This document shows positions 935 through 29,017 of a DNA stretch of 36,592 bases, one piece after another; the first letter of the stretch is position 1; each line of letters starts with the position of its first letter. The stretch lies in IMG/VR virus record IMGVR_UViG_2703718832_000006. One strand, given 5' to 3'. The translations under genes and the position numbers were made by a program. The notes under the pieces are model-generated. The model saw only the letters and a list, made by a program, of their open reading frames with translations. It was not told the DNA's origin and did not search any database. This DNA comes from a virus. Its lineage: Duplodnaviria; Heunggongvirae; Uroviricota; Caudoviricetes.

Positions 935-2620
935 GTGAATATAAACGTCGCCGAATTGTTAAATGGGAATTACATTCTGTTATTATTTGTGGTCCTCGCG
1001 CTTGGGCTATGTCTCGGAAAGTTACGACTTGGTTCGATCCAACTGGGTAATTCCATTGGCGTTTTAGTCGTATCGCTGTTATTAGGCCAACAACATTTCA
1101 GCATTAACACCGATGCGCTTAATCTTGGCTTTATGCTGTTTATTTTCTGCGTCGGGGTCGAAGCCGGACCGAACTTTTTTTCCATTTTTTTTCGCGATGG
1201 GAAAAATTACCTAATGTTAGCACTGGTGATGGTTGGCAGTGCGCTGGTGATCGCCTTAGGGTTAGGTAAGCTGTTTGGCTGGGATATTGGCCTGACGGCC
1301 GGTATGTTAGCAGGCTCTATGACGTCGACACCGGTTCTGGTCGGTGCTGGCGATACACTGCGTCATTCCGGCATGGAAAGCAGGCAGCTCTCACTGGCAC
1401 TGGATAATCTGAGCCTCGGGTATGCCTTAACCTATTTAATCGGTCTGGTGAGTTTGATTGTTGGTGCGCGTTACTTGCCGAAATTGCAGCATCAGGACTT
1501 ACAGACCAGCGCCCAGCAAATCGCCCGCGAACGTGGCCTGGACACTGATGCCAACCGTAAGGTTTATTTACCGGTGATCCGCGCCTATCGCGTCGGCCCG
1601 GAACTGGTGGCCTGGACCGACGGCAAAAATCTGCGTGAACTGGGTATTTATCGACAAACCGGCTGCTACATTGAACGTATTCGACGTAACGGGATTCTGG
1701 CAAATCCAGACGGTGATGCCGTGCTACAAATGGGCGATGAAATAGCGTTGGTAGGCTATCCCGACGCCCATGCCCGACTCGATCCCAGCTTCCGTAACGG
1801 TAAAGAAGTTTTCGATCGTGACCTTCTCGACATGCGTATCGTCACTGAAGAAGTGGTCGTTAAAAACCATAACGCTGTAGGTAAACGTCTCGCACAACTG
1901 AAGTTGACCGATCACGGTTGCTTCCTTAACCGCGTCATTCGTAGCCAGATTGAGATGCCGATAGATGACAACGTCGTGCTTAACAAAGGTGACGTTTTAC
2001 AAGTCAGCGGCGATGCCCGCCGCGTAAAAACCATCGCCGATCGCATCGGCTTTATCTCGATTCACAGCCAGGTCACTGACCTGCTGGCATTCTGCGCCTT
2101 CTTTGTTATTGGGCTGATGATCGGGATGATCACCTTCCAGTTCAGCACATTCAGTTTCGGCATGGGGAACGCTGCCGGGTTGTTATTCGCCGGAATTATG
2201 CTGGGCTTTATGCGTGCTAACCACCCGACCTTCGGTTACATTCCGCAGGGTGCATTAAGCATGGTGAAAGAGTTCGGCTTGATGGTGTTTATGGCAGGCG
2301 TTGGTCTGAGCGCCGGTAGCGGTATTAATAACGGCCTGGGCGCGATTGGCGGTCAGATGTTGATTGCCGGATTGATTGTCAGTCTGGTGCCCGTGGTTAT
2401 CTGTTTCTTGTTCGGTGCTTATGTATTGCGAATGAACCGCGCGCTGTTGTTCGGCGCAATGATGGGCGCACGTACCTGCGCGCCGGCAATGGAGATCATC
2501 AGTGATACAGCTCGCAGTAACATCCCGGCGCTGGGCTATGCGGGCACCTATGCAATCGCCAACGTCCTGCTGACGCTGGCAGGGACAATCATCGTCATGG
2601 TATGGCCAGGATTAGGATAA
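935..2620 (+). CDS. ybjL: putative transporter YbjL (membrane transporter with central soluble domains)
   Basis: 561-aa ORF with hydrophobic N- and C-terminal blocks flanking a soluble middle; N-terminus [17 protein letters not shown] recognised as YbjL. Confidence 0.88.
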
Positions 2621-2732
2621 AACTGAAGTTGCCCTGAAAATGAAATTTTTTTGCACAACCGCAGAACTTTTCCGCAGGGCATCAGTCTTAATTAGTGCCA
2701 CTGCTTTTCTTTGATGTCCCCATTTTGTGGAG

Positions 2733-2776
2733 CCCATCAACCCCGCCATTTCGGTTCAAGGTTGATGGGTTTTTTG
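2733..2776 (+). terminator. putative rho-independent terminator after ybjL
   Basis: Inverted repeat cccatcaacc ... ggttgatggg followed directly by tttttt. Confidence 0.55.
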
Positions 2777-2855
2777 TTGCCTGAAATTTAAGCTGTTTAA
2801 AATCATGATGTTAGAAACACTGTTTTTTAACGATGGCGACAAAATGGCGGCAGCG

Positions 2856-8829: not shown

Positions 8830-10002
8830 TTACGCGCTGACCTGGCTGGCGAAATTCACCAGGTACTGATCGGTGATGCGCTGACGCAGCATCAGGTTTT
8901 CAAGTGGCGGCACTGGCGTGTAGTCGTAGTCGATGGTGAGTTTTCCGGCTTTCAGCGTGTCTTTGTCGTTCACCGACTCATCCAGCCAGCAATCACCACC
9001 AATGAGATAGCCCTGACTGACCAGTCTGCGCATTTTGGCGCGGATACCTTCGATAATGTCGCGGGCCAGCGACGGGTTAAGCGGTTTATCCACCGCCCAC
9101 ATGTGTGCTTCTGCCATCGTGTCCGTCAGCACCTGCGCCGTGCGGGTGTAGTTTTCGAAGGCAAAGAGCGGGTCATCACTCAGGCAGCGGGACCCCCAGA
9201 AGCGGAAACCGTCTTTACGCACAAGCGTGGTGACGTCGTTCTGGTTCAGCAGACCTGCATCGGTTGCCGGGTCCTGCAGATCCCAGAACACATCTGCAGA
9301 AATTCCGGTGACACCGTTCACGCCCACATTGGACAGGCTTTTGTGCCATCCGGTCTGCTCGTCAATTTTGGCGCGCAGACCAAGCGCACGGGCGGTGGCA
9401 TATGCCGTTGCTTCGGCATTCAGCACCGTGTCCCAGCCAGTAAAGTCAGGCCAGATCAGCATCCCTTCGCGCTGGCTGAAGTTTTCGCGGTAAGTGATCG
9501 CCTCCTGCACTGTCTTGCAGCCATACGCTGACAGGTAAGCAAATCCACGCAGGCTTTGCGCCACGCTCAGCAACTCAGTAGCTACCGCCTTGGTGTCGTG
9601 GCCTGGCACGCCGAGAATGCGCGGTTTAACGCCGAGCTGTGACTGGGCAGATAACAGGGCTTTCATACCTGTTTTTTTACCTTCAGCAGTCACTGCGCCG
9701 ATGATATTGGTCGTGGTTTCGTCTTCCGTTTCACCCTGCGGCACACGCACAACAATGGTCACGGGTTTTGCCTGGTCAGCGATGGCATCCAGCGAACGGG
9801 CCAGAGTACCGGACTCACCCGCTTTACCGCTGGCAGTCAGCACATCAGTGATCAGCACGGGTTTATTAAGAGGAAACATTTTTGCATCGGCATCATCGCC
9901 CGTGCAGACCATACCCACGATGGCGGTGCTCACCGTGGTAATAGATCGGGTGCCTTCGTTGACTTCAACAACGCGCACCCCGTGGTGGTAATCCTGAGCC
10001 AT
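8830..10002 (-). CDS. tail sheath protein FI
   Basis: 390-aa ORF with AGGAGG-like RBS, upstream of FII, P2 gpFI position and size. Confidence 0.9.
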
Positions 10003-10096: not shown

Positions 10097-10144
10097 AAAT
10101 AACGGTATTTGTCTGCTTGCAGGGATAATCAACATAATGCTGAT

Positions 10145-10717
10145 TCAGGGGGATTCATTACTCTTATTTGCCGGAAATTTTCTATAAATTGTGGAAACAC
10201 CCACATCAAAAATCAGTGCAATACGCTGTCTTGATTCTCCGGCCTCGAGTAAGCGTCCAATCTGTGCCCACTGTTCGGTGGTCAACTTAGGACGGCGTCC
10301 ACCTACTCTGCCTTTATCACGAGCTGCAGCCAGCCCCGCCCTGGTACGTTCAACTATCAGTTCGCGTTCCATTTCAGCTAGGGCACCCATGACATGAAAA
10401 AAGAAACGGCCCATTGGGGTACTGGTATCAATACTGTCAGTCAGGCTTCTGAAATTCACACCACGCTGGCGCAACTCTTCTATCAGCGTAACAAGATGCC
10501 GCATACTGCGCCCCAACCTGTCCAGCTTCCAGACAACCAGCGTGTCTCCTGCCGATAGTGTCCTGAGTAGTTTTTTCAGCCCCGGTCTGTCGGACTTAGT
10601 GCCACTGATTTTGTCCTCAAAAATCCGCTCACATCCCGCGCAGTTCAGTGCATTACGTTGCAAATCGGTGTTCTGGTCATTTGTTGACACGCGTACATAG
10701 CCAATAAGCATGATCAT
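10145..10717 (-). CDS. site-specific DNA invertase, Hin/Gin/Cin/Pin serine recombinase family
   Basis: 190-aa ORF starting MIMLIGYVRVSTNDQNTDLQ (catalytic-serine region of small serine invertases) with a C-terminal HTH; inverted crossover sites flank the adjacent tail-fibre segment. Confidence 0.9.
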   Translation of the reverse strand: MIMLIGYVRVSTNDQNTDLQRNALNCAGCERIFEDKISGTKSDRPGLKKLLRTLSAGDTLVVWKLDRLGRSMRHLVTLIEELRQRGVNFRSLTDSIDTSTPMGRFFFHVMGALAEMERELIVERTRAGLAAARDKGRVGGRRPKLTTEQWAQIGRLLEAGESRQRIALIFDVGVSTIYRKFPANKSNESP

Positions 10718-10738
10718 CCCCCTGAATAAAAACCGGAG

Positions 10739-11137
10739 ATGATGCCAGTTAGCTGTTACCTCTGCATTTTCTTAAACGTTGGTTTGGGAGAAGCGGCGAA
10801 AAGGGATGTGGGCACAGGAGATAATCAGATACCGGATATGGGAGCATTCGCTTCTGGTTCGGGATGGTTCAGGCTACCAGGTGGATATATTGTTCAGTTT
10901 GGCACTTTTTCAGGAAACACGACCCGCTTTATCAGTGGACACTTCCCTATACCATTCCCTAATCAGCCGATGGTTTCAGTCAGTGTTATGTCTGATGCCG
11001 TTCAGTCAGACCCGTCGATTCCTGCCCCGCAGGTTTTGTCTGTAAATTTTGAACGTATCAGTAATTCAGCGTGGCGTGTGGCAACCAGTGATATCTCACA
11101 GCAATACAGATTCAGTTATATTTCGATAGGACGGTAG
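10739..11137 (+). CDS. alternate tail-fibre C-terminal coding segment (silent in this orientation)
   Basis: Frame open across the crossover site, where it encodes ...GLGE... exactly as H does at its own site; an inversion would fuse it in frame to the constant part of H. Confidence 0.6.
   Translation: MMPVSCYLCIFLNVGLGEAAKRDVGTGDNQIPDMGAFASGSGWFRLPGGYIVQFGTFSGNTTRFISGHFPIPFPNQPMVSVSVMSDAVQSDPSIPAPQVLSVNFERISNSAWRVATSDISQQYRFSYISIGR
10767..10792. repeat. inversion crossover site (hix/gix-like 12-2-12 site), invertase-proximal copy
   Basis: ttttcttaaacg tt ggtttgggagaa; the right half-site is identical to the half-site in H at 12646-12657 in inverted orientation. Confidence 0.6.
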
Positions 11138-11139
11138 AA

Positions 11140-11580
11140 ATGCAGAAATATATTTTCAGTGCCGATAAAAATGCGTTTTTCCCTGTGGAGCTTAAAATCG
11201 CTTATCAGGAATCCGGCGAATGGCCCGATGATGGAATCGAAATTGACGACACTGTTGCTGCCGAATTTATGAAGGAAGCACCAGAAGGAAAATACAGAGG
11301 TGTCATCGACGGAATGCCTGCATGGATTGATATTCCACCGCCAACTCATGAGGAACAAATTGCCGCAGCCGAACTGAAAAAGCAGCAATTGATTAATCAG
11401 GTCAACGAATACATAAACAGTAAGCAATGGCCTGGTAAAGCGGCGATTGGTCGCCTGAAAGGTGAGGAACTGGTGCAATATAATTTGTGGCTGGATTATC
11501 TGGACGCACTGGAACTGGTCGATACTTCCGGTGCGCCAGATATTGAATGGCCTACGCCTCCGGCAGTTCAGGCCAGATGA
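11140..11580 (+). CDS. tail fibre assembly chaperone (alternate, partner of the silent fibre segment)
   Basis: 146-aa ORF directly after the alternate fibre segment; its C-terminus (DTSGAPDIEWP) parallels that of the G-like protein on the opposite strand (DTSTAPDVIWP). Confidence 0.65.
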   Translation: MQKYIFSADKNAFFPVELKIAYQESGEWPDDGIEIDDTVAAEFMKEAPEGKYRGVIDGMPAWIDIPPPTHEEQIAAAELKKQQLINQVNEYINSKQWPGKAAIGRLKGEELVQYNLWLDYLDALELVDTSGAPDIEWPTPPAVQAR

Positions 11581-12154
11581 CATCAGGCGCGGTGCTGGTA
11601 TCTGTTGCCGTCACCGCGTCAATATAATCCAGCACAGCGTTAAGTCGGGTTGTTTCTGCCTGCGTCAGCTTCCGTCCGGCCTGTAATTTCAGTTGAATCA
11701 GACTGATGGAAGACATTGCTGCATCAATCAGTGACTGGCGCTGTGCTTCTGCCGCTTCTACTGCGGCGCTATGCTGTGCCTCAGTATCCGTCACCCATTT
11801 CTCACCATCCCATTTATCATATGGCGTTAACGGGGCGATAGTGGTTGTATTTTCAGGGTAATCACCCAGAGATGTGATTTCTTTCGATTCTCCTGTTTCG
11901 GTGCTATAGATGATTTCACCGCGATGGTCTGGCACATATTCCCATGAGTTAAAATCTGCAGAGCGGCAGATTGCATAACCGGCTTTATGTGTACCTGGTG
12001 CATCTAAGCATGAATACGCCGGAATACCGACACCCACAGCAAGGTATTCGGTTGATGTGGAAAGATATTCCTTCGTCTCAGCATCAAAATTATAAACGGT
12101 AATGTTTCCTGCCTTTGTAGTAATGAGTTCGCTATTTAATACGGCTTTATTCAT
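11552..12154 (-). CDS. tail fibre assembly protein G
   Basis: 200-aa ORF whose start overlaps the H stop by 1 nt; P2 gpG position. Confidence 0.8.
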   Translation of the reverse strand: MNKAVLNSELITTKAGNITVYNFDAETKEYLSTSTEYLAVGVGIPAYSCLDAPGTHKAGYAICRSADFNSWEYVPDHRGEIIYSTETGESKEITSLGDYPENTTTIAPLTPYDKWDGEKWVTDTEAQHSAAVEAAEAQRQSLIDAAMSSISLIQLKLQAGRKLTQAETTRLNAVLDYIDAVTATDTSTAPDVIWPELPEA

Positions 12155-13707
12155 CAGGCTGCCCTCACGATATAGTTAAATGCGACGTTGCGCGGGTAAC
12201 CTTCTTGGTTTCCAAAGGTGGGGCTCTGCGTAGTCACAGAAGTAGCAGAGTTGTTGTTTGTCCCGCCGCTGCCGCCAAGTGATCGGATAACGCCGCCGTC
12301 GCCTGCTGTCGCTGCTGGCCCTAACTCCCTACCGTTCTGCGATGGTACAGTTGTACTAGTTGGGATGCTGCCGCTAGCCGATGTCCAAATTTCCAAGCCG
12401 TGGACGTGCGATCCTGGAGACCATCCCTGGCTAGACCCTATCGAACGCCCTGGATCAACCCCTCGCCCATCATCCCATCCACGAATAAATTCACCGCGCA
12501 GGTCTGGCAGCAAAAGACCGGGGTAAGCGAGAGCAAGCTTCGGATATTGGGAGGCGATAAATGGCGCACCGTTGCATTTCAACCAGCCTGTTGGCGGAGT
12601 TGCTAAAGGCCACGGAACAGGGACACCAACAGGTAATGCAGAGCCTTCTCCCAAACCAAGGTATGCGAGAAGACCAGCAACATCCTTTCCACTCAAATTA
12701 GTCAGCGTATTGTCCAGCGGTTGTTTACCTGCCAGTGCATTAAGCATTGTCGTGGCAAAGTTCGGGTCATTCCCCAGCGCCGCCGCCAGTTCGTTCAGTG
12801 TATCCAGTGCCGCAGGTGCAGAACCCACCATTGCCGCAATCGCCGATTTCACAAAAGCCGTGGTGGCAATCTGTGTATTGTTGACCGACTGCGCCGCCGT
12901 GGGGGCTGTTGGCGTTCCGGTGAGTGCCGGACTCGACAGCGGCGCTTTCAGTGCCAGCGCATTGTTAATGGTGGTACTGAATTTCGGATCATTGTTAATG
13001 GCTACGGCTATTTCTTTCAGCGTGTCCAGCGTGGCTGGCGCACCATTAATAAGAGCCGTCAGTGCCTCCTGAACAAACGCGGTGGTCGCAACCTGCGTGG
13101 TGTTATTCCCCGCCGCTGGCGTTGGCGCTTTGGGTGTCCCGGTAAACGTAGGACTTTCTTTCTGTGCATACTGTGAATGCGGGTCCGGTGCGGCAAGATG
13201 TTTTGCCATCTGATCATCCGCGTACACCTTCAGCTCCAGTACCTTATCATCCACATACTTGCGGGTTGCCAGCACTACGGCAGGGTCGATTTTCAGGGTG
13301 ATATTGTCCGTGCTGCTGGTAATCAACACCATACGCACGGTCTGGGTACGCCCGCTGCCTTCAGCCAGTTGCGGCTTATAGCTTTCCGGGCAGTTGCCCA
13401 CGGCAATCAATGCCCCGGACTCATCAAACAGGCCCACTTCACGTATCCACCAACCGCCCTCGTTTTCAGGGATCACCTGTTCAGCAATAATCTGGCTGCT
13501 GTTCTGCGGGTCGATATAGAGCATATTCAGCGCAGCCCGGCGTTTCTCATTTACCAGTGCCGTCTGCTTTGCGTCCGGCGTTGGCAATACTCCGCCGCCA
13601 TCGCCCACCGCCATATGGGTAATTTTTAGCGGCACACCGAGCGCGGCGGCGCTGGCAAGTTTCGCCGCGCCAATATCCGTCAGCAGGGTATAAAATTTTG
13701 TGCTCAT
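12154..13707 (-). CDS. tail fibre protein H (currently expressed variant)
   Basis: 517-aa ORF; N-terminal MSTKFYTLLTDIGAAKLASAA... resembles the P2 gpH N-terminus; the C-terminal roughly 165 aa lie inside the invertible segment. Confidence 0.9.
   Translation of the reverse strand: MSTKFYTLLTDIGAAKLASAAALGVPLKITHMAVGDGGGVLPTPDAKQTALVNEKRRAALNMLYIDPQNSSQIIAEQVIPENEGGWWIREVGLFDESGALIAVGNCPESYKPQLAEGSGRTQTVRMVLITSSTDNITLKIDPAVVLATRKYVDDKVLELKVYADDQMAKHLAAPDPHSQYAQKESPTFTGTPKAPTPAAGNNTTQVATTAFVQEALTALINGAPATLDTLKEIAVAINNDPKFSTTINNALALKAPLSSPALTGTPTAPTAAQSVNNTQIATTAFVKSAIAAMVGSAPAALDTLNELAAALGNDPNFATTMLNALAGKQPLDNTLTNLSGKDVAGLLAYLGLGEGSALPVGVPVPWPLATPPTGWLKCNGAPFIASQYPKLALAYPGLLLPDLRGEFIRGWDDGRGVDPGRSIGSSQGWSPGSHVHGLEIWTSASGSIPTSTTVPSQNGRELGPAATAGDGGVIRSLGGSGGTNNNSATSVTTQSPTFGNQEGYPRNVAFNYIVRAA
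12646..12671. repeat. inversion crossover site (hix/gix-like 12-2-12 site) inside H
   Basis: ttctcccaaacc aa ggtatgcgagaa; lies in H codons 347-354 (LAYLGLGE). Confidence 0.6.
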
Positions 13708-14309
13708 GGATTCACTCTCATTGTGTCAATAACATGGACCGCCCCGCCTTCATGCGCGGTGCCACCGGAAATAATCGTTTCGTTGATATACGGATAGATC
13801 GTGATTTCTTCGCCAAGATAGCTGGCGGCTCCCACCCAATACGGGCCGCTGGTCTGCAGATTGATGGACATGCCGATCATGTGGCGGCTACATGGTTTGG
13901 CATCGCTTATCAGTCGCTCAAGTTCCAGATAGGTATCTTCAGTGATGCCCTGGTCCTGCACGCCGATATCCAGGCGAAACGTGCCCGGTGCCTCTCCGGT
14001 TTGCCACCACTCAATAATGCGGATCAGAAAGCCGAACGGCTCCACCACCCGCCGCACGGCACTGGTGGTCCCTTTATGCTGATGAATATAAAAAGCATCC
14101 TTCACCACCTGGCGCTTGACGCTTTCTGTCCAGCCTTCGTCCCAGCGATCCACAGAGAACGCCCAGGCGAGATAAGGCAGGAAGCTGACCGGGCAGGTAG
14201 CCGGATTCCACAAGTCACGCAGCGGCACCTGCAGATCAGAAATCCCGCTGCACGTTTGCGCCAGTCGGCGCTCCAGTGAAGTTGACCCCGATGGCAGCAG
14301 ACTATTCAT
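13704..14309 (-). CDS. baseplate/tail protein I
   Basis: 201-aa ORF between J and H, P2 gpI position. Confidence 0.8.
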   Translation of the reverse strand: MNSLLPSGSTSLERRLAQTCSGISDLQVPLRDLWNPATCPVSFLPYLAWAFSVDRWDEGWTESVKRQVVKDAFYIHQHKGTTSAVRRVVEPFGFLIRIIEWWQTGEAPGTFRLDIGVQDQGITEDTYLELERLISDAKPCSRHMIGMSINLQTSGPYWVGAASYLGEEITIYPYINETIISGGTAHEGGAVHVIDTMRVNP

Positions 14310-15210
14310 CCGTTCCCCCGTTGGTCACGCTCCACTCCGTACATGATGCCGCCTGCGTTTTGTTCAAAACCACATCCGCCAGCGGCGAAGCCAGCTCCAC
14401 ACGCTGTACACCCTCAACATGCAGGGCGGCAAAGATGGCGCTACGGCGAATATCCCTACCAAGCCGCGTCTGACTGGCGATGTATTTCTGCAGGCTGGCT
14501 TTTGCCGCTGCCATTACCGGCTCTGCTTCCGGCCCCGGATAGAGAAAAATGGTGGCTTCCACGCGATACGGGATGATTTCTGCGCTGCGAACCGTCAGAC
14601 GGTCAGCCACCGGGCGAACGTTCTCACTGTTCAGAGCTTTTTCCACCACGTCCAGCAGGTCTTTTTCTGCTGTTCCGTCGCCTTCACGGCTTAGGACCGT
14701 AAGCACCACCTCTGCAGGTGCCGGGCTGGTTGCACTGGCATCCGCCACCCGACCGTCGGCGCTTCGGGCATGAAATTCATAAGCTGCGGTTGGCCCCGCA
14801 ACCGAAAGCCCTTCAAAAGCCGCAGGCACACGCAGGCGTAACGCTTCATCGCTTTCCATCACAGCCGCAACGGGTGGCACAGCGTCATTATCAGCAGGCG
14901 TCACCGTCAGGCGTTTCACGTTGTAGTTGGCAGCGAGCTGGTCAAGATCGCCGCCCATCGCGTAAGCCACCATCACAGCATGCGCGGCTTCGTTAATGCG
15001 CTGGCGCAGAAGCAACTCACGGTAAGCGTTCTCCTGAAGCAATTTGGTGACGGGTTCAGATTCCAGTTCCAGCGTGCGGATCACTGCTTCCTGCTCATCT
15101 TTCGGATGAAGCGCAACAAATTCGGCCTTGCGTTCGGCAAGCAGCGTCTCAAAGTCCGGCACATCCACAATCTGCGGCGCAGGCAACTGCGAAAGGTCAA
15201 TCACTGCCAT
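14302..15210 (-). CDS. baseplate assembly protein J
   Basis: Start placed at internal Met 14 (MAVIDLSQLPAP...), which resembles the P2 gpJ N-terminus; about 302 aa. Confidence 0.85.
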   Translation of the reverse strand: MAVIDLSQLPAPQIVDVPDFETLLAERKAEFVALHPKDEQEAVIRTLELESEPVTKLLQENAYRELLLRQRINEAAHAVMVAYAMGGDLDQLAANYNVKRLTVTPADNDAVPPVAAVMESDEALRLRVPAAFEGLSVAGPTAAYEFHARSADGRVADASATSPAPAEVVLTVLSREGDGTAEKDLLDVVEKALNSENVRPVADRLTVRSAEIIPYRVEATIFLYPGPEAEPVMAAAKASLQKYIASQTRLGRDIRRSAIFAALHVEGVQRVELASPLADVVLNKTQAASCTEWSVTNGGTDE

Positions 15211-15556
15211 TCTCTGCTCCTGTTGATACGGAAAGGGAAACAGGCACACCGTTATTACGCCGCCCGGTCAGCTCCACCACCATTGAACCGTCAAAATTGC
15301 TGTTAATGGTGATGGAATCCAGCGTCAGCCGTGGCTCCCAGCGACTCAGCGCCACATACACTGCCGACATGACCTGCAGGCGTAATGCCGGATTTTGTGG
15401 CTGGTCTATCAGTGCCGACAGCAGGGAACCATATTCCCGACGGGCAATGCGGCTACCCTGCGGCGTCAGCAAAATGTCCCGCACCGACTGGCGCAGATGG
15501 TCAATATCAGTAATGGCTTTACCGCTGGTATTGTTCATCCCGCTATAAAGCGTCAT
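15197..15556 (-). CDS. baseplate wedge protein W
   Basis: 119-aa ORF between V and J, P2 gpW position and size. Confidence 0.85.
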   Translation of the reverse strand: MTLYSGMNNTSGKAITDIDHLRQSVRDILLTPQGSRIARREYGSLLSALIDQPQNPALRLQVMSAVYVALSRWEPRLTLDSITINSNFDGSMVVELTGRRNNGVPVSLSVSTGAENGSD

Positions 15557-16199: not shown

Positions 16200-16646
16200 T
16201 CACCCCGCCAGCCATTGCAGAATCATGTCGCGGGTCATTGCCTCAACATCATCATTTACACCCAGAAGGCGACGCTCTGCGTAACGGACCTCCGGTCCTT
16301 TGCGGCTGACGCGATCACGTAAGCCGTAGTGATGAACACGGGCAATGCGCTGTACCTTGCCTTCAAACTGCACGCTGGCAGAGTCGGCGCTGGCGGAAGT
16401 TTTCAGGTATTTTGTGGTGCGCAGCTTTGCAAACATCTGACGTTTGATACGGCCTTTTTTACTGCGTGCTGTTACCCGTCGCGGTTCATAACTGCTGCCA
16501 TCTGGATTGCGCTGCATTCTGATATTTTGCTGCTGTGTCCGGCGTAGTTCCTGCGCCAGCTGGCGCATCATGCGGCTTCTTGCGGCTGGCTCCAGATTCG
16601 CCAGCAAGGCACTCAGCCAGTCGTCCACTTTCTGCAGTTCAGCCAC
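16200..16646 (-). CDS. tail completion protein S
   Basis: 148-aa ORF downstream of R, P2 gpS position. Confidence 0.82.
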   Translation of the reverse strand: MAELQKVDDWLSALLANLEPAARSRMMRQLAQELRRTQQQNIRMQRNPDGSSYEPRRVTARSKKGRIKRQMFAKLRTTKYLKTSASADSASVQFEGKVQRIARVHHYGLRDRVSRKGPEVRYAERRLLGVNDDVEAMTRDMILQWLAG

Positions 16647-17091
16647 GTTTCACCGTCCACATTTCTTCAGGTTCATCGGGTTCCGTTATCGCTTCAACGC
16701 TCGACACACTTCCGTCAGTGCTGACCAGCACACGCTCCGTCAGCTGCAGGTTCAGGCTGATATCACAGACATCGTTGCGCAGAATATCCACCTCAAAGGT
16801 GAATAGCTTTTCCCGTAACGTCGGGTTATTGATGGCATCAGACTGGTTATCCCGCAGCCACAGCAAAACCGGGGCCATCAGCAGATTCTGGTCGCCGCTG
16901 AAATCTTCAATTACCACGTTCAGGGTGTAGCGGTACTCCCATGACATGGAGCTGGCCCCAGTGGCAACCAGCGAACCGTTATCCACAAACAGATGCAGTT
17001 TGTCCGGGTTATTACGGACATAAGGCACTGCTTTATTGAGGGCGTGGCGCAGGGATTGTGGTTTGTTCACTGTTTCGCTCCTGACACGCAA
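16639..17091 (-). CDS. tail completion protein R
   Basis: 150-aa ORF, P2 gpR position; the true start may be slightly downstream (a GTG at the VNKPQSLR... residue). Confidence 0.78.
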   Translation of the reverse strand: MRVRSETVNKPQSLRHALNKAVPYVRNNPDKLHLFVDNGSLVATGASSMSWEYRYTLNVVIEDFSGDQNLLMAPVLLWLRDNQSDAINNPTLREKLFTFEVDILRNDVCDISLNLQLTERVLVSTDGSVSSVEAITEPDEPEEMWTVKRG

Positions 17092-17323
17092 TAATCATGT
17101 CCACTTTGTCTGCACAGACCGCCCAGGCGGCCTCCGTTTCATCCAGCAATGCGTTCAGATCACCGTTATTGTGTGGCGCTGCCTGATCCAGCTGACACGG
17201 CGTCACTCGCGGACAACCACTGACGGTAAGCTGCACCTCCGGTGAGTGCCGGACGTTCCCGCAGCCGGATAATGTCAGCAGGCAAAGGAGTATCAGCCCA
17301 GCGGCGTAAATCCTCGTTCTCAC
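17033..17323 (-). CDS. outer-membrane spanin lipoprotein (LysC/Rz1-like)
   Basis: 96-aa ORF with a signal peptide and lipobox (LTLSGC), overlapping the 3' part of the i-spanin gene out of frame, the classic overlapped spanin arrangement. Confidence 0.6.
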   Translation of the reverse strand: MRTRIYAAGLILLCLLTLSGCGNVRHSPEVQLTVSGCPRVTPCQLDQAAPHNNGDLNALLDETEAAWAVCADKVDMIIACQERNSEQTTIPAPRPQ

Positions 17324-17594
17324 GTTTCAGTTCCTCAATCCGGCGTTGTCGTTGTCTCAGCAGTGCACTGGTCTGTTCTGCTTCGGCATAGAGCCGCGCC
17401 TGCTCCCGGTTGTTAGTTTCAGTCAGAATGGACAGGCTGATAAGCTGGTTGTTGCTCTTTGCCAGCGCCTGGCTTTTGCTCTGCAGCTCGTCTGCCTGCG
17501 TGCTGATGGTCTGGCTGGCATCAGCCAGCCGCCACGTCTGCCAGCCCAGCGACGCCAGTAATAACGCCAGCACAACCAGCAGCAACCGGTTCAT
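17166..17594 (-). CDS. inner-membrane spanin (LysB/Rz-like)
   Basis: 142-aa ORF with an N-terminal transmembrane helix followed by charged coiled-coil-like sequence. Confidence 0.7.
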   Translation of the reverse strand: MNRLLLVVLALLLASLGWQTWRLADASQTISTQADELQSKSQALAKSNNQLISLSILTETNNREQARLYAEAEQTSALLRQRQRRIEELKRENEDLRRWADTPLPADIIRLRERPALTGGAAYRQWLSASDAVSAGSGSATQ

Positions 17595-17968
17595 GCTGCT
17601 ACCTGTTGCGCCATCTGGTTACGGGTGATCCAGAAGACAATAACGGTCAGCAGATAAAAGACCAGGGTAATAGCCCACCCCGTCCAGGCGAGACTTACGA
17701 CAATCAGCAATCGCATAACCCAGCTGATAAATACGTTTTCTTTTCGGGTAATGCTCTTCAGCAAAGATGCCCTCAACTCCTGCCAGAGCGGGCCATTCTG
17801 AATTAACGCAGCCAGTGCTACCGGAATTACCGCCCATGTCAGCAAACAGGCTACCCAAACGCCGGACGCTGCCAGTACCGGAAAGATCCCCTGCGGATAC
17901 ACCATTGCTGCGATTAACAGCGCCATCCATAACATCAGAAACAGTCCGCTGATTAATTTCTTTTTCAT
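17591..17968 (-). CDS. LysA-like membrane protein (lysis timing)
   Basis: Start placed at internal Met 25 (MKKKLISGLFLMLW...), 2 nt after the endolysin stop; multi-pass hydrophobic protein. Confidence 0.6.
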   Translation of the reverse strand: MKKKLISGLFLMLWMALLIAAMVYPQGIFPVLAASGVWVACLLTWAVIPVALAALIQNGPLWQELRASLLKSITRKENVFISWVMRLLIVVSLAWTGWAITLVFYLLTVIVFWITRNQMAQQVAA

Positions 17969-17969
17969 T

Positions 17970-18482
17970 TCAGTTTGCTCCCTGTAAGCACCAGGCCATC
18001 TCCCGCGCACGGCGGTTATCCAGCCCCTGATTAAAAACACCTTTCACATAAACCCAGCGCGGCAACTGTCGGCACGCATCCGCCCAGCGCCGCTGATTGA
18101 GCAATTTCACCAGCGTGGAGCTGCAGGCATTGCCTGTCCCCACGTTGAAGGCAAATGACACCACCGCGTCATACACTTTCTGCGGTGGCTGTTGCTTCAC
18201 ACACCTTTCCAGTGACCGCTCCACACGCAGCACGTTGGAGATAAGCCCTTCTGCTGCCTGTCGTTCCGTAATGGTTTTGCCGGGAATGACGCCCGACGTA
18301 TTACCAATGCCGTCGGTCCAGACGCCCGCGCTGCACTGATACGGCTGCAGACGACAGCCTTCGTAATCGGCGATCAGTTTCAGTCCCTCCACGGAGGTGT
18401 GAAGCTGCTGAAAACCCGGCAGCGTGGCAGCAATAGCCAGCACAACCCCGACAAGGCAGCGTTTAACGATTGATGGATTCAT
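17970..18482 (-). CDS. endolysin, phage lysozyme with N-terminal signal-anchor-release (SAR) domain
   Basis: 170-aa ORF; hydrophobic Gly/Ala-rich N-terminal segment (CLVGVVLAIAATLPGF) followed by an E-x8-D-x5-T lysozyme catalytic motif (EGLKLIADYEGCRLQPYQ...T). Confidence 0.82.
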   Translation of the reverse strand: MNPSIVKRCLVGVVLAIAATLPGFQQLHTSVEGLKLIADYEGCRLQPYQCSAGVWTDGIGNTSGVIPGKTITERQAAEGLISNVLRVERSLERCVKQQPPQKVYDAVVSFAFNVGTGNACSSTLVKLLNQRRWADACRQLPRWVYVKGVFNQGLDNRRAREMAWCLQGAN

Positions 18483-23916: not shown

Positions 23917-24959
23917 TGGGAAAGAGTAAGAAAAACCGCGCTGCGGCGACGAATCAGCTCAAGCATAAAAGCCAGACTTCAGCCGAAGCATTCAGCTTTG
24001 GCGATCCCGTTCCTGTTCTGGACCGCCGTGAACTGCTGGACTATGTGGAATGCGTACAGATGGACCGCTGGTATGAGCCGCCCGTCAGCTTTGACGGACT
24101 GGCACGAACCTTCCGCGCTGCCGTGCATCACAGCTCACCGATTGCAGTAAAATGCAACATTCTGACCAGTACCTACATCCCTCACCCGCTGCTCAGCCAG
24201 CAGGCTTTTTCACGTTTTGTGCAGGACTATCTGGTATTTGGTAACGCCTACCTGGAGAAACGCACGAACCGCTTCGGTGAAGTTATCGCCCTTGAGCCTG
24301 CTCTGGCAAAATATACCCGACGCGGGTTAGACCTGGATACCTACTGGTTTGTGCAATACGGTATGACAACCCAGCCGTATCAGTTCACGAAAGGCAGCAT
24401 TTTTCATCTGATGGAACCGGACATCAACCAGGAGATCTACGGCCTGCCAGGTTATCTTTCTGCCATTCCGTCAGCCCTGCTCAACGAGTCCGCCACGCTG
24501 TTCCGCCGGAAGTATTACATTAACGGCAGTCATGCAGGCTTCATCATGTACATGACCGATGCCGCGCAGAACCAGGAAGATGTGAACAACCTCCGCAATG
24601 CGATGAAAAGCGCCAAAGGTCCGGGCAACTTCCGCAACCTGTTTATGTACTCGCCTAACGGCAAAAAGGACGGGCTTCAGATTATCCCATTGTCAGAAGT
24701 TGCGGCGAAGGATGAGTTTCTGAATATCAAGAACGTGAGCCGTGATGACATGATGGCTGCGCACCGCGTGCCGCCGCAAATGATGGGGATTATGCCTAAT
24801 AATGTTGGAGGGTTTGGGGATGTGGAAAAAGCCGCGAAGGTTTTTGTCAGAAATGAGTTGGTTCCTTTGCAGAAAAGACTAGTTGAGCTAAACACCTGGA
24901 TAAATCAAAATATTGTGTCATTTAATGACTACATCCTTGACCAAGATAAGGGCATTTAA
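23913..24959 (+). CDS. portal (capsid vertex) protein Q
   Basis: 348-aa ORF overlapping the P stop by 4 nt; P2 gpQ position and size. Confidence 0.9.
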   Translation: MMGKSKKNRAAATNQLKHKSQTSAEAFSFGDPVPVLDRRELLDYVECVQMDRWYEPPVSFDGLARTFRAAVHHSSPIAVKCNILTSTYIPHPLLSQQAFSRFVQDYLVFGNAYLEKRTNRFGEVIALEPALAKYTRRGLDLDTYWFVQYGMTTQPYQFTKGSIFHLMEPDINQEIYGLPGYLSAIPSALLNESATLFRRKYYINGSHAGFIMYMTDAAQNQEDVNNLRNAMKSAKGPGNFRNLFMYSPNGKKDGLQIIPLSEVAAKDEFLNIKNVSRDDMMAAHRVPPQMMGIMPNNVGGFGDVEKAAKVFVRNELVPLQKRLVELNTWINQNIVSFNDYILDQDKGI

Positions 24960-25747
24960 TGCCCTTTTTTATCCTCATAAGCAACGTCATCGTATAATTT
25001 TAAGGCACCTAAATCATGTAATTGCTGCTTGAATTCCTTACTTAAACTAAACCCCTGAAGGAGAGAATATTTTTCAATAAATTTCTTGGCAGGCTTTCCT
25101 ACCGATGAAAAACCATTTAATAGCATCGCGCCAGATTCTATAGAAGATATTTGTGCTCTAACTAATTTCGCATACTTGGTTTTTTCTTTCTCAGTCAAAT
25201 AGTTAGAGTCATTGATATGTTTAAAAATATGGTAAATATTCCTGAAATAATGTCCCACATTCGCAAAATTGTCACCTTCCAGATAAACCATATTAACTGA
25301 AAGCTCTAACCTTTCATCCAAAGGAAGTGAATCATCCACAATATTAAGTAGGTTAAACTTCACTTCGGTAATGTATAATGAAAGAGCCTCCCGTCCTACA
25401 TACACTTTTCCATCTGAATACGTTGTTTTAATTTCTGATAAGTTATCTTTATGAAATCTTAGTAACTCAAATAACACAGACTCGAATGACTGAATAGATG
25501 ACTGCCTAGATGTAGAATATAGTGTGAAACAAACAAGCATGATAGAGATAAAGGCCAGAGCAGGATTCAGTACACCACCAATATAATCGCCAAACTGTCC
25601 CCATTTCTCTACGGAATCACTCCATGAATACATTCCAAATTTACAAACATAGCTAACAAACACTATCAGCATTAAAATAAAAGCCAAAAACAACAGTGAA
25701 TAAATAATGGCATAACGCTTAATATTTCGAAGAATGGCACCACACAT
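24956..25747 (-). CDS. membrane protein with two N-terminal transmembrane helices and a roughly 190-aa soluble C-terminal domain (cargo, function unknown)
   Basis: The track ORF 24956..25813 begins with a non-ATG codon and overlaps the upstream gene; the first ATG (Met 23, at 25747) has an AAGG about 10 nt upstream; two hydrophobic helices (AIIYSLLFLAFILMLIVFV and ALAFISIMLVCFTLY); AT-rich codon usage. Confidence 0.55.
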   Translation of the reverse strand: MCGAILRNIKRYAIIYSLLFLAFILMLIVFVSYVCKFGMYSWSDSVEKWGQFGDYIGGVLNPALAFISIMLVCFTLYSTSRQSSIQSFESVLFELLRFHKDNLSEIKTTYSDGKVYVGREALSLYITEVKFNLLNIVDDSLPLDERLELSVNMVYLEGDNFANVGHYFRNIYHIFKHINDSNYLTEKEKTKYAKLVRAQISSIESGAMLLNGFSSVGKPAKKFIEKYSLLQGFSLSKEFKQQLHDLGALKLYDDVAYEDKKGH

Positions 25748-25758
25748 CTCACAATACC

Positions 25759-26136
25759 TTATATATAATCCATATTTAAATCTATTGTATAAATACCTTT
25801 CCTCGCCACACAAGGAATAGATTTCTTTAAAATTCTAACATTTTTAATTTCCCACACATAATAACCTGGAGACCAAGGCTTATTAAGAGTTGTTTCTTGG
25901 TTTTGTTTTAAGTAATCCTCATATGACCAATTTCTAACTGAAACAAAATCGACAATAGCCATAGCCACCCCATGATCTATATCGCTTTGATTTTTAAGAT
26001 ATTTATCATTCTGAACAAGAATGACGTTTTTTAATGGTATCGTTTCAGGATACCACGACCGTATTTCGATAGATTTAGAACCATTTATAATATTTTCTAC
26101 CGCTGGAGTCAAAATCGATATAGCTTGAAACTTCAT
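25759..26136 (-). CDS. ASCH-domain protein (PUA-like fold)
   Basis: 125-aa ORF with the N-terminal GxKxxExR signature of ASCH domains (GSKSIEIR). Confidence 0.6.
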   Translation of the reverse strand: MKFQAISILTPAVENIINGSKSIEIRSWYPETIPLKNVILVQNDKYLKNQSDIDHGVAMAIVDFVSVRNWSYEDYLKQNQETTLNKPWSPGYYVWEIKNVRILKKSIPCVARKGIYTIDLNMDYI

Positions 26137-26201
26137 GCTCTATCCTCTACTATGCTAAGGCTATAACATTCTAACATAAATAAATAAACGGAGGTAATAC
26201 T

Positions 26202-26747
26202 ATGTTAATTTTCATAGCAGGTGTTCATGGTGTAGGCAAAGGTTACTTGTGTTCATTTGCAAAAGATGATTTCGGGGTAACTCATGTAAGCGCAAGCGAA
26301 CTTATAAAAAATAATTCTAATATTAAATTTGATAACAGTAAGTTAACGGCCACACCTGATAAAAACCAATCAATATTACTTACGGCACTTAATGCATTAA
26401 AGTTAAAGGTATCCAATATTTTATTGGATGGTCATTTTACCTTAATAAATAAAAATGGAGATATTGAAGTTCTCAAGCAAGAAGTATTTGAGGAAATGGG
26501 GCTAGATGGAGTAATTTTAGTTGAGGAGTCTCCCGATACAATTAGAGAACGAATAATGAAACGAGATGGGAGTGATATTACTTATGATTTAAATAAGCTG
26601 ATGGAAGCTGAAAGAGAAAACGCAAAATATGTTACAAATAAAATCAATGTACCATTAATTATCTTAGAATCCCCAACAACAAACGATTTATCTATTGCCC
26701 TAGAAAAACTGGGCATGGTTAAGAAACATGCCCAGACAACATTATAA
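26202..26747 (+). CDS. small P-loop NTPase, kinase-like
   Basis: 181-aa ORF with a Walker A-like loop at the N-terminus (IFIAGVHGVGKGYL) and a hydrophobic-strand aspartate (ILLDGHF); GGAGG RBS before the ATG. Confidence 0.65.
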   Translation: MLIFIAGVHGVGKGYLCSFAKDDFGVTHVSASELIKNNSNIKFDNSKLTATPDKNQSILLTALNALKLKVSNILLDGHFTLINKNGDIEVLKQEVFEEMGLDGVILVEESPDTIRERIMKRDGSDITYDLNKLMEAERENAKYVTNKINVPLIILESPTTNDLSIALEKLGMVKKHAQTTL

Positions 26748-27134
26748 ATAACGATAAGACTGTGGGGCGACGCCGCCGGGAATCAACTCATTTAAGTCGA
26801 CAGGGAATTTATATCTTTTAGGGCTTTTGATGGAAATAGCAAAAGCCTTTTCTCTTTGGTGGAAATAATCTTTAAAAAAAGAATGTGTAATTCCTGCATG
26901 AGCTTTCGTTTTATCCCACAATTCTGAAGGGGATAGAGCAAGAATATCTCCTACTTTAAATTCACCTATTACTTTGCCAACCGGCATCGTTGCGTAAATA
27001 ACTATCGTATCAACATTTTTATTTCTAAAAATATTTTTCCGAAACTCATATTTTTTTTTACCAGAAAGTATACTCTCTGCATACTCTGGCTTAATCGATA
27101 ATAAAACTTTCATCAACACCTCCCTGTAAGACAA
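26742..27134 (-). CDS. ASCH-domain protein (PUA-like fold)
   Basis: 130-aa ORF with the ASCH GxKxxExR signature (SGKKKYEFR); the start may be Met 8 (27113); its stop overlaps the convergent kinase stop by 6 nt. Confidence 0.6.
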   Translation of the reverse strand: MSYREVLMKVLLSIKPEYAESILSGKKKYEFRKNIFRNKNVDTIVIYATMPVGKVIGEFKVGDILALSPSELWDKTKAHAGITHSFFKDYFHQREKAFAISIKSPKRYKFPVDLNELIPGGVAPQSYRYL

Positions 27135-27672
27135 TCTGCTTAAATGCTGAATCAGTTAGTGGTAAAAAACCCCAATAATCACTATTGGTATAACCTGTAA
27201 TATTCATGATTTCATCACGAATAACTCTTTTTTCCAAAGGGAAATTATAAGTAAACCGTATAATTATCGGATAATTTTTTTTCATATATAGAAGCTGTAA
27301 CTCATCTTCATCAAAAACGCTATAAGGTTCACAGTAATTCTTAAATTCCTCATAAGTTAAGAAATCGTGAATATCTTTAATTTCCTGAACCACACACACT
27401 GAAGTTGCAACAGATCTAAACCGAGCTGGACCTTGTCCATCTGAAGTACGATAAATAAGCAAATTATCTCCAGGCTTTAGGCTGGCTACCCCATGCATTT
27501 TTGTTAAGTATACTTTTTCAATACTGTTGGTATGTGATATATCAGCGATGATACCAGCACTCTCATTGTGGAGTTTTGACTCAGGGAAAAGACGTGTATG
27601 CCATGCAGGATAAATACTTAATAAATAATTTCTCCCCTGCAATTTGACTAAGGGATAATTAGCATAGCTCAT
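27091..27672 (-). CDS. hypothetical protein (193 aa), middle gene of the GNAT-ASCH operon
   Basis: ORF packed between the GNAT and ASCH genes with a 3-nt gap upstream and an overlap downstream; no motif I can assign with confidence. Confidence 0.5.
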   Translation of the reverse strand: MSYANYPLVKLQGRNYLLSIYPAWHTRLFPESKLHNESAGIIADISHTNSIEKVYLTKMHGVASLKPGDNLLIYRTSDGQGPARFRSVATSVCVVQEIKDIHDFLTYEEFKNYCEPYSVFDEDELQLLYMKKNYPIIIRFTYNFPLEKRVIRDEIMNITGYTNSDYWGFLPLTDSAFKQIVLQGGVDESFIID

Positions 27673-27675
27673 TTT

Positions 27676-28146
27676 TTACTCCTTCCATACCAAGTTTTTA
27701 AAGTATACACCTTCTTGCCCATTAATCGTAGAAAGATTTTTCCTCGCCTTTAAAACAAAACCATATTTAGTTAATAAGCGAATTAATCCTGAATGCTTAT
27801 CAAATATAGTAACATATACTTCTTTTAGTTTGTTTCTCATAGCAAATTGAAACATAATTCTAATAAAACGCTCTCCAAGTTTGGTTCCATGAGCATCGAT
27901 TTTAAATGTGCCAAGCTTTACTCGCTTCATCTTTGGAAACGTTGGAGTCATATCACTCAACTCTTCATCTTCTATTTTCAAATAGAGAAAACCATCGATT
28001 TCACCTAATTCATTACGTGATACAAACGCCTTATTTTTACCTTTTGAGAGAAACCAAACATCAAATCCTTCATAATCAGCTCTTAGGCTGTTAAAAAACG
28101 GATCTTTTAAATCGATATCACTAAAAAATTTTTCCTCGATAGACAT
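27676..28146 (-). CDS. GNAT-family N-acetyltransferase-like protein
   Basis: 156-aa ORF with a GNAT-like core pattern (HGTKLGERFIRIMFQFA ... LIRLLTKYGF); fold assignment is by eye only. Confidence 0.5.
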   Translation of the reverse strand: MSIEEKFFSDIDLKDPFFNSLRADYEGFDVWFLSKGKNKAFVSRNELGEIDGFLYLKIEDEELSDMTPTFPKMKRVKLGTFKIDAHGTKLGERFIRIMFQFAMRNKLKEVYVTIFDKHSGLIRLLTKYGFVLKARKNLSTINGQEGVYFKNLVWKE

Positions 28147-28320
28147 CCAGTTCCTCTTCTAATGGCAGCGAGCAAGTGACCTTATCCTTACATGTTAATA
28201 GATAACCACAGCTGTAGGCAATTACATACATTAAGCTCTATCAAACAACGAGCAAACTTAAGCACCGCTACAACTCAACCTAGCTGATGCCTGTTTTGAC
28301 GATTACCCTATCAGCGCGCG

Positions 28321-28339
28321 CTCGTATCCCCGCCACGCC
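28321..28339 (-). other. cos-like cohesive-end site
   Basis: Minus-strand GGCGTGGCGGGG..., matching from memory the first 12 nt of the 19-nt cohesive ends of P2 and 186. Confidence 0.4.
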
Positions 28340-28380
28340 TGCCCGCTTTATGTAGTGGTTTTCATGCACCTGCATGATCT

Positions 28381-28408
28381 ACGCAAAAGCCCGCCAGTTC
28401 TGGCGGGC
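28381..28408 (-). terminator. putative rho-independent terminator after the DinI-like gene
   Basis: Stem gcccgccag / ctggcgggc with a 3-nt loop, followed on the minus strand by TTTTGCG. Confidence 0.45.
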
Positions 28409-28777: not shown

Positions 28778-28787
28778 AAAAGACCCC

Positions 28788-28976: not shown

Positions 28977-29017
28977 CTTTCCTCCTATGACACCACAAGC
29001 AATACTGTATGTATAAC

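Follow-up and report, generated by a model that had tools for sequence, protein, structure and literature searches.

A probable Gin/Cin/Pin-type inversion switch in the tail-fiber operon of a P2-like prophage

Does the tail-fiber gene H of this virus have a single 3' end, or can it be joined to either of two? The question is raised by a pair of short inverted repeats, one inside H and the other beside a DNA invertase gene, in the 36,592-nt stretch of DNA analyzed here (the window). The locus is very probably an inversion switch of the Gin/Cin/Pin type located in the tail-fiber operon of a P2-like (Peduoviridae, 186/Fels-2-type) prophage, and public contigs show that the segment has been inverted precisely at these sites in nature. 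The gene order, J-I-H-G followed by the switch and then FI-FII-E-T-U-D, matches the P2 tail order, as judged from the open reading frames of the window and from the Pfam families of the identical genes on an E. coli assembly contig (L002, described below). The features of the locus are collected in Table 1.

Table 1. Features of the invertible tail-fiber locus (positions in the window).
Feature	Position	Strand	Description
Crossover site L	10767-10792	+	26 bp, 12-2-12; TTTTCTTAAACG TT GGTTTGGGAGAA
Crossover site R	12646-12671	-	26 bp; reverse complement TTCTCGCATACC TT GGTTTGGGAGAA; inside H
Invertible segment	10779..12659	.	1881 bp, core dinucleotide to core dinucleotide
DNA invertase gene	10145..10711	-	188 aa from ATG 10711; in-frame upstream ATG 10717 would give 190 aa
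Putative recombinational enhancer (Fis-binding region)	10622..10693	.	5' end of invertase gene, nt 19-90
Constant N-terminal part of H (about 350 aa)	12660..13707	-	Outside the invertible segment; Pfam Phage_tail_fib N-terminal domain
Fiber tip A, currently expressed (H residues 351-517)	12154..12657	-	Pfam Collar domain; phrog_523 tail collar fiber protein
Chaperone A, partner of tip A, gpG position	11552..12154	-	200 aa; Pfam Caudo_TAP, E 2e-32; phrog_105
Silent fiber tip B	10781..11137	+	118 aa from GLGE; Pfam Gp53-like_C; PHROG tail fiber and virion structural families
Chaperone B, partner of tip B, tail-fiber assembly	11140..11580	+	146 aa; Pfam Caudo_TAP, E 9e-34; phrog_188 tail fiber assembly protein

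A preliminary description of this DNA had placed two inverted 26-bp sites of the 12-2-12 form at these positions, both within reading frames encoding the peptide GLGE, and repeat and site scans recover them. When site R is read as its reverse complement the two are identical at 21 of 26 positions, with a perfect shared stretch of 15 bp (TTGGTTTGGGAGAAG). They constitute the top-ranked inverted repeat between positions 9900 and 13900 and the sole matches to the site sequence across the window. Each scores 20/24 in a window scan against a gix/cix-type consensus, compared with 15 for the next best site in the window and a maximum of 17 among 50 shuffles. GLGE is encoded at H residues 351-354 and, as part of VGLGE, in the + strand ORF 10739-11137. 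Site R does lie inside H, at nt 1037-1062 of the gene, although it extends over codons 346-354 and not 347-354 as first given; its core dinucleotide falls within codon 350. The cores of the aligned sites read TT/TT, so that religation after inversion is possible, and a pair of imperfectly palindromic 26-bp 12-2-12 sites in inverted orientation with equal cores is what the Hin/Gin/Cin/Pin subfamily of recombinases demands. Among related phages, the sequence of site R is identical in all four examined, and site L is nearly identical in these four, which carry different cassettes. A third site, as in a shufflon, was looked for by the site scan of the window and none was found; the locus has two sites only.

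The gene adjoining site L encodes a full-length invertase with Pfam Resolvase (E 7e-53) and HTH_7 (E 1.5e-15) domains. It is 75% identical to Mu Gin, with which it aligns end to end, and 79% identical to P1 Cin, and Mu Gin is also its best solved-structure match (3UJ3/4M6F, E 3e-93). In size, catalytic Ser, and C-terminal helix-turn-helix (HTH) the protein is a small serine recombinase of the Hin/Gin/Cin/Pin type, in agreement with the family assignment first made for it. The reading frame is complete and the catalytic motifs are intact: Ser9 is kept, and the motifs YVRVSTNDQ and VVWKLDRLGRS are identical to those of Gin. The second of the two in-frame ATGs (10711) is the more likely start, being better spaced from a GGGGG ribosome-binding sequence and also the start called in relatives.

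Several features suggest that inversion would depend on Fis and an enhancer, as it does in the related systems, which also require negative supercoiling. The M114V allele of Gin is Fis independent, and the invertase described here has the wild-type Met114 (ALAEMEREL) together with a QxGRL motif (QIGRLL). Fis- and enhancer-dependent invertases uniquely conserve Hin residues Q151, R154, and L155 as well as the basic helix-B residues 47, 48, and 51 (PMC3798978), and equivalents of these are present, the former within QIGRLL and the latter as K46, K47, and R50. The putative enhancer corresponds by homology to cin nt 19-90, the annotated enhancer of the P1 record, and is 78% identical to cin and 72% identical to gin; this part of the gene is also the coding sequence of the conserved catalytic N-terminus. 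A Fis-like 15-mer at gene nt 71-85 is common to the invertase gene, gin, and cin according to a degenerate consensus, which did not pin down the second of the two expected Fis sites and yielded this one conserved 15-mer only. The region starts ~86 bp away from the site L core, a distance similar to the value of about 100 bp given for hixL (PMC3798978). A 12-nt perfect inverted repeat that brackets the invertase ORF was considered as a regulatory pairing and rejected; it is absent from three of four relatives, being present only in Cartapus, and is probably due to chance.

The fiber genes are laid out as in known phage invertible tail-fiber segments such as Mu G, P1 C, e14 P, and p15B Min, with a constant N-terminus outside the segment, a crossover within the ORF, and convergent cassettes that each include a chaperone. 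The tips belong to different families (Collar for tip A vs. Gp53-like_C for tip B), and no similarity was detected between the two or, at E 1e-3, between either and the tips of Mu, P1, and P2. Tip B lacks its own start codon at the site, and the ORF call from 10739 is a spacer artefact. A consensus scan found no promoter-like site upstream of tip B on the + strand, in line with the earlier view of the segment beside the invertase gene as a promoterless alternate. The two chaperone genes overlap antisense at their 3' ends by 29 nt (11552-11580), and their products are 35% identical over the C-terminal 80 residues, ending in ...APDIEWPTPPAVQAR and ...APDVIWPELPEA; both the overlap and the likeness of the C-terminal peptides had been pointed out previously. 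A consensus scan for a terminator between the cassettes gave scores at background level.

Inversion of the segment had been predicted to fuse the constant part of H to the other tip and to swap the chaperones. Carried out in silico at the TT/AA cores, inversion of these 1.9 kb places H residues 1-350 in frame with the 118-aa tip, producing a 468-aa protein where the orientation read here encodes a 517-aa fiber ending in tip A, and sets the 146-aa chaperone directly downstream. The constant part of H is unchanged in both orientations, in the in-silico product and in natural contigs alike. An exact-protein look-up found the predicted 468-aa fusion, letter for letter, in public assemblies. The E. 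coli assembly contig L002 agrees with the in-silico inverted window at every one of 13,407 nt, without a gap, and hence public sequences represent this one prophage in both orientations; detection of one orientation only, which the preliminary description had named as evidence against a switch, is not what the public contigs contain. The flipped-form contigs L002-L007, obtained in different assemblies and sequencing runs, match the in-silico inverted window at 99.99-100% identity, and none of their single alignments is longer than the 13,407 nt just mentioned. The natural breakpoints map within 10779-10793 and 12645-12659, that is, inside the 15 bp common to the sites.

Both forms are common in K. 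pneumoniae, with 197 and 113 contigs for the 517-aa form and 97 and 37 for the 468-aa form. Among complete E. coli genomes the native junction occurs in none at coverage of at least 80% and the flipped junction in 31; the tip B form is common in E. coli. The idea that orientation tracks host genus was rejected: Klebsiella has both forms, and the tip B form is shared by E. coli, Klebsiella, and Salmonella. None of the phage-collection records spans the in-silico flipped junction on both sides; the matches show mostly mosaic breakpoints at the site. An exact scan for site R in species-representative genomes returned only two stretches, in one Escherichia sp. genome. A 1860-bp Escherichia sp. contig considered as a case of within-culture heterogeneity was set aside, as it represents a different invertible segment with ~70-bp repeats.

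A mechanism can be proposed from these elements. H would be transcribed from the - strand by the late operon, with its first ~350 codons fixed, and the reading frame would enter the segment, bounded by the inverted 26-bp sites, at codon 350. In the present orientation H ends in tip A (517 aa in all) and is followed by the 200-aa chaperone, whereas in the inverted orientation it ends in tip B (468 aa) and is followed by the 146-aa chaperone, the unused cassette in either case presumably lacking a promoter and a start codon. The 188-aa serine invertase is encoded just outside the segment by a gene that, like gin of Mu, is transcribed away from it. If the enzyme acts as Gin and Hin do, its dimers would bind the two sites, the bound sites would synapse on the enhancer that Fis occupies in the 5' part of the gene, and both would be cut at the central TT/AA, rotated by 180 degrees, and religated.

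The resident invertase is presumably the agent of flipping. Hin, Gin, Cin, Pin, and Fin cross-complement one another, and a real switch might be flipped in trans by another Gin/Pin-family invertase of the host, such as Pin of e14 or that of another prophage, with the resident gene dispensable or poorly expressed. Such an arrangement would be consistent with the abundance of such loci in E. coli, which often has several (up to 5-7 places per genome), and with a consensus scan for a sigma-70-like promoter of the resident gene, which found no clear candidate above background. It is nevertheless very unlikely: in every relative examined the resident gene adjoins the sites without exception, it is intact and highly conserved, and the inversion forms occur also in Klebsiella and Salmonella, genera without e14.

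The two tips are expected to confer different host ranges. Tip B is short (118 aa), and a possible host-side use of such variation has been raised (PMC4272514), so that inversion might leave host range unchanged, the second cassette being degenerate, non-functional, or devoted to something else, for instance tailocin targeting that benefits the host. There is little probability of this, however, as tip B has a recognized fiber C-terminal domain and an intact chaperone of its own, the pair recurs at 98.5% nucleotide identity in phage SKA5 under the annotations side tail fiber protein and tail fiber assembly protein, and the tip B form is kept at 97-100% in hundreds of contigs. With a change of host range the preferred reading, one may ask whether the tips recognize receptors that are distributed differently among E. 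coli, Klebsiella pneumoniae, and Salmonella enterica, all of which harbor near-identical copies (97-100%) of the prophage and its fiber forms. This seems doubtful; orientation in sequenced lysogens is independent of genus and so neither supports nor excludes it. If true, the switch would let one P2-like lineage move between genera.

Beyond annotation the locus is of little importance. It is best annotated as one fiber gene with two alternative 3' ends, with ORF 10739-11137 and its 180-181-aa counterparts in flipped contigs treated as a silent cassette instead of a gene in its own right. In phage-therapy or tailocin studies of Klebsiella and E. coli, lysates of the prophage can be expected to hold two virion types, and the two pairs of tip and chaperone are ready-made modules for receptor studies.

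The suggestion that the two orientations reflect rare RecA-dependent recombination between short repeats, or assembly artefacts, with no active switch, can be dismissed as extremely improbable: although the evidence compares assemblies of different isolates and not a single culture, RecA requires identity much longer than the 15 bp that match perfectly here, the repeat is shorter than assembler k-mer sizes, which makes mis-orientation by the assembler impossible, the junctions are base-precise in several independent assemblies and sequencing runs, and the flipped form is frequent across three genera. An active switch is also what has been described at the same kind of locus in other P2-like prophages, where inversion in EPEC and ST131 has been demonstrated by whole-genome sequencing and by PCR, the latter within clonal cultures (PMC4272514, in which the Fels-2 Fin paper is reference 43; bioRxiv 10.1101/2022.05.07.487787).

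P2 itself lacks the switch, as the preliminary description stated: in its record the gene between G and FI is fun(Z), and there is no invertase. The rarity that this statement implied does not hold, many P2-like phages and prophages with such a switch having been published. The proposal that the invertase occupies the P2 Z/fun position is upheld by the P2 record, the gene lying between the invertible segment and the sheath gene FI. The Z/fun hotspot and the invertases found in it have been described (bioRxiv 10.1101/2024.10.15.618418), and related Peduoviridae records annotate the same layout. P2-like invertible fiber loci are found in the EPEC E2348/69 prophages, the ST131 P88-like prophage, Cartapus, 500465-2, MET_P1_103_31, T22 'P2', and Klebsiella phage KP12. 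The Fin locus of Fels-2 is presumably a further P2-like example. The slot between the fiber chaperone and FI is identical in these relatives, and only the cargo differs, i.e., the combination of tips and chaperones. Across the entire module KP12 shows 99.6% identity, with its gene annotated as 'DNA invertase', while 500465-2 also has this module, but with the invertase flanked in its record by tail genes other than FI. One EPEC locus is a three-site shufflon, in contrast to the two sites here, and in some relatives the repeats are longer, at ~70 bp, and take in constant H sequence.

Systems of this kind are already known, the Mu G, P1 C, and e14 P segments working the same way, and the sole local particulars are two tips that bear no relation to the tips of Mu, P1, or P2. 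The likeness to Mu and P1 that had been drawn at the outset is evident in their records, which show the same layout. In the Mu G segment (Gin, with gix sites and the sis enhancer) the constant 5' part of the fiber gene likewise lies outside, the crossover falls inside the ORF, and two convergent cassettes each comprise a tip and a chaperone. The Mu invertase gene is likewise just past the far site, on the fiber-gene strand and pointing away from the segment, with a distance from site to start of ~67 bp vs. ~55-60 bp here, and the gix sites are likewise 26 bp and of the same form. The differences lie in the host phage (Mu-like vs. P2-like), in the length of the segment (about 3.1 kb in Mu vs. 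1.9 kb) and of the constant fiber part (about 170 aa in Mu vs. about 350 aa), in the chaperone genes, which are 28 bp apart in Mu and overlap at their 3' ends here, and in the tips, Mu S and S' having no detectable similarity to those described here. Salmonella Hin/hix belongs to the same recombinase subfamily, its sites are also 26 bp long, and its invertase gene likewise contains an enhancer bound by Fis; the Fis-contact residues are conserved here. Hin, however, flips a promoter and is located inside its own segment, whereas here the 3' end of a coding sequence is swapped and the invertase lies outside. In P1, cin points towards the C segment and shares its 3' end with cixL, while the invertase gene here points away; the C segment is 4.2 kb long vs. 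1.9 kb, and its tips are unrelated. The P1 site cixR (TTCTCTTAAACCAAGGTATTGGATAA) nonetheless matches site R at 21 of 26 positions, and residues 256-412 of P1 S are 80% identical to residues 184-340 of the constant part of H.

The tail-fibre locus lies within a P2-type tail cluster, where the fibre gene H, comprising a constant part (residues 1-350) and tip A, is followed by the gene for its partner, chaperone A. Three window ORFs stand between chaperone A and the sheath gene FI: chaperone B, a plus-strand open frame encoding tip B, and an invertase. Pfam assignments for the fibre, chaperone and invertase proteins are consistent with PHROGs. After in-silico inversion of positions 10779-12659, H residues 1-350 read in frame into the plus-strand frame; this yields a 468-aa fibre directly followed by the 146-aa chaperone, and leaves tip A and the 200-aa chaperone as the silent cassette. 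This 468-aa protein was recovered with all residues exact from public E. coli assemblies by exact-sequence look-up, as was the 517-aa H of the window. The look-up covered 24 contigs encoding the 468-aa form, six of which were retrieved for alignment; their flanks are 100% identical to the window and the 1.88-kb segment is reversed, with breakpoints within 10779-10793 and 12645-12659. One contig (L002, GCA_014080365.1) is identical to the in-silico inverted window at 13,407 of 13,407 positions, L003, L005, L006 and L007 match it at 100% identity, and L004 carries one mismatch. Outer half-sites remain with the flanks and inner half-sites are exchanged, as predicted for site-specific exchange at the core. 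Thus, both orientations of one prophage have been sequenced, in independent isolates. The preliminary description had proposed an invertible tail-fibre switch, detectable in both orientations, that fuses the constant part of H to a second tip and swaps the chaperone. The public contigs confirm this as an observation, the in-frame fusion and chaperone swap are borne out both in silico and by the exact 468-aa protein, and the interpretation is supported.

Features of the fibre locus and other prophage regions (window coordinates)
Feature	Position	Strand	Remarks
J	14302-15249	-	P2-type tail cluster
I	13704-14309	-	P2-type tail cluster
H, 517 aa	12154-13707	-	Pfam Phage_tail_fib N-terminal domain and Collar domain
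Site R	12646-12671		reverse complement TTCTCGCATACC TT GGTTTGGGAGAA
Chaperone A, gpG-like, 200 aa	11552-12154	-	Pfam Caudo_TAP
Chaperone B, 146 aa	11140-11580	+	Pfam Caudo_TAP
Open frame (tip B)	end at 11137	+	Pfam Gp53-like_C
Site L	10767-10792		TTTTCTTAAACG TT GGTTTGGGAGAA
Invertase, 188-190 aa	10145-10711/10717	-	Pfam Resolvase and HTH_7
Sheath FI	8830-10002	-	P2-type tail cluster; tube FII further along this strand
285-aa protein	within 24956-29078		putAbiC domain; weak PADLOC AbiC match
AAA_17 kinase-like protein	26202-26747
PDC-M11B	26742-27134		candidate system PDC-M11
PDC-M11A, two same-frame ORFs	27676-28146 and 27091-27672		split by TAA stop
RybB sRNA gene	2700-2778		105 bits
Asp-Al_Ex permease gene, YbjL/YidE-type	935-2620		adjoins RybB gene
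Integrase	35384-36592		opposite window end from RybB gene

The segment is bounded by two inverted 26-bp sites, L and R, of 12-2-12 form, which agree at 21 of 26 positions (15 of them consecutive) and rank first among the inverted repeats of the region. Matches to the site sequence in the whole window are limited to these two. Each scores 20/24 against a gix/cix-type consensus; the next score in the window is 15, and the maximum in 50 shuffles was 17. The gixL and gixR sites of Mu and cixL and cixR of P1, read from the phage records, have the same form and much of the same sequence, and P1 cixR agrees with site R at 21/26 positions. Site coordinates and description in the preliminary account were correct, and translation upheld its reading that GLGE is encoded in frame at both sites. 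One site does lie inside H, as it held, but spans codons 346-354 rather than 347-354. Gene finders start the silent cassette too far upstream, at an ATG that occurs by chance in the site-invertase spacer (10739-10780). The resulting upstream-extended ORF is 132 aa in the window and a 180-181 aa 'Collar' gene in flipped contigs (L002 8424-8966); these extended ORFs are annotation artefacts, not separate genes.

The invertase probably starts at 10711. Crystal structures of Mu Gin align with it over its full length (E 3e-93), and its identity is 75% with Gin and 79% with Cin. It shares with Gin, unchanged, the catalytic Ser9 motif YVRVSTNDQ and the motif VVWKLDRLGRS; a Met occurs where both Gin crystal constructs have Val. 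No truncation or frameshift was found in the alignment to Gin, and the full-length gene is free of the inactivating lesions that would have counted against a switch. Residues unique by conservation to Fis/enhancer-dependent invertases include Hin Q151/R154/L155 and basic residues of helix B (PMC3798978). The counterparts kept here are QIGRLL (equivalent to Hin Q151/R154/L155) and helix-B K46, K47 and R50. The Cin enhancer is annotated at cin nt 19-90 in the P1 record, and the corresponding stretch of the invertase gene (10622-10693), beginning about 86 bp from the site L core, has identities of 78% with cin and 72% with gin. All three genes keep a Fis-like 15-mer at nt 71-85. The stretch is regarded only as a putative recombinational enhancer, because a second Fis site could not be placed confidently and these nucleotides double as coding sequence for the conserved catalytic N-terminus.

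A consensus scan found no convincing sigma-70 promoter for the invertase. Expression may be weak, as is usual among invertases of this family, or transcripts of the late operon, which runs on that strand too, may read through into the gene. Flipping of the segment in trans by a related invertase is highly improbable. A perfect 12-nt inverted repeat (10143-10154 / 10716-10727; ATTCAGGGGGAT / ATCCCCCTGAAT) flanks the invertase ORF, and on the mRNA the 3' end covering the stop codon would pair with the ribosome-binding region. The repeat is found in Escherichia phage Cartapus and is missing from three of the four relatives compared, which have different sequence at the annotated invertase 3' ends (one gene being annotated shorter); given this absence, it is probably due to chance or particular to this lineage.

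Mechanism and architecture are the same as in Mu G/Gin, P1 C/Cin and e14 P/Pin. The closest gene arrangement is that of Mu, with the invertase past the far site and transcribed away from the segment, whereas cin of P1 is directed towards it. In the P2 record fun(Z) lies between G and FI, without an invertase, which agrees with the proposed placement of a Hin/Gin-family invertase at the P2 Z/fun position. According to a survey of phage hotspots, this one often encodes a DNA invertase, with inversion of adjacent genes (bioRxiv 10.1101/2024.10.15.618418). Whole-genome sequencing detected inversion in two EPEC E2348/69 prophages of P2-like type, and PCR validated one of them, a three-repeat shufflon (Goldberg et al., 2014, PMC4272514); a PCR-confirmed inversion altering gpH was described in an invertase-carrying P88-like prophage of ST131 isolates (bioRxiv 10.1101/2022.05.07.487787). 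Systems of this kind are thus already known, and the very sequence of this locus is already in public deposits in both orientations.

The nearest phage record is Klebsiella phage KP12, with 99.6% identity over the module, the same orientation, and annotation of a 'DNA invertase' and two assembly proteins. Four more diverged Peduoviridae (Salmonella phage MET_P1_103_31, Escherichia phages 500465-2 and Cartapus, and 'P2' of strain T22) have this layout too, with no change in site R, very little in site L, and cassettes that differ in part. Several phages lose homology to the window exactly at the crossover site, and phage SKA5 carries tip B and its chaperone at 98.5% nucleotide identity under features named side tail fiber protein and tail fiber assembly protein; the site is thus a boundary of module exchange as well. 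Tips A and B show no relation to each other or to the Mu, P1 and P2 tips. The repeat-rich constant residues 184-340 of H (12688-13158) are 80% identical in protein to P1 S residues 256-412 and also match another stretch of P1 S at 53%, a case of mosaicism that connects a P2-like fibre with the shaft of the P1 fibre. An 1860-bp contig of Escherichia sp. MOD1-EC7003 (L016) consists entirely of a further invertible fibre segment, whose two tips and chaperones are different ones. At its ends stand inverted copies of some 70 bp, which contain about 44 nt from the constant part of H as well as the 26-bp site; these repeats are far longer than those of the window and like those reported for a P88-like prophage.

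A homology search found the 468-aa form (97-100% identity) in E. coli, K. pneumoniae and Salmonella enterica; an entry from S. Typhi is labelled 'probable variable tail fibre protein'. K. pneumoniae has two 468-aa variants (on 97 and 37 contigs) and Klebsiella also has the 517-aa form (on 197 and 113 contigs). With both forms in Klebsiella and the 468-aa form in three genera, orientation does not track host genus. The difference between the two tip families is what suggests that inversion would change host range.

Elsewhere, the tail end of the prophage (gene D at 3165) starts a few hundred bases beyond the RybB gene, which places the apparent integration site of the prophage next to rybB; the window contains no tRNA or tmRNA genes. 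Flipped contigs L003 and L005 lack exactly 1652 bp (16410-18061), the region of lysozyme, LysA, gpR and gpS, and are 100% identical to the flipped prophage outside this gap; both are deletion derivatives, presumably defective. Between the portal and gpA genes, 24956-29078 corresponds to the P2 old/tin hotspot and carries cargo resembling defence genes. Three bases past the TAA stop that splits PDC-M11A is an ATG preceded by a good GGAGG.
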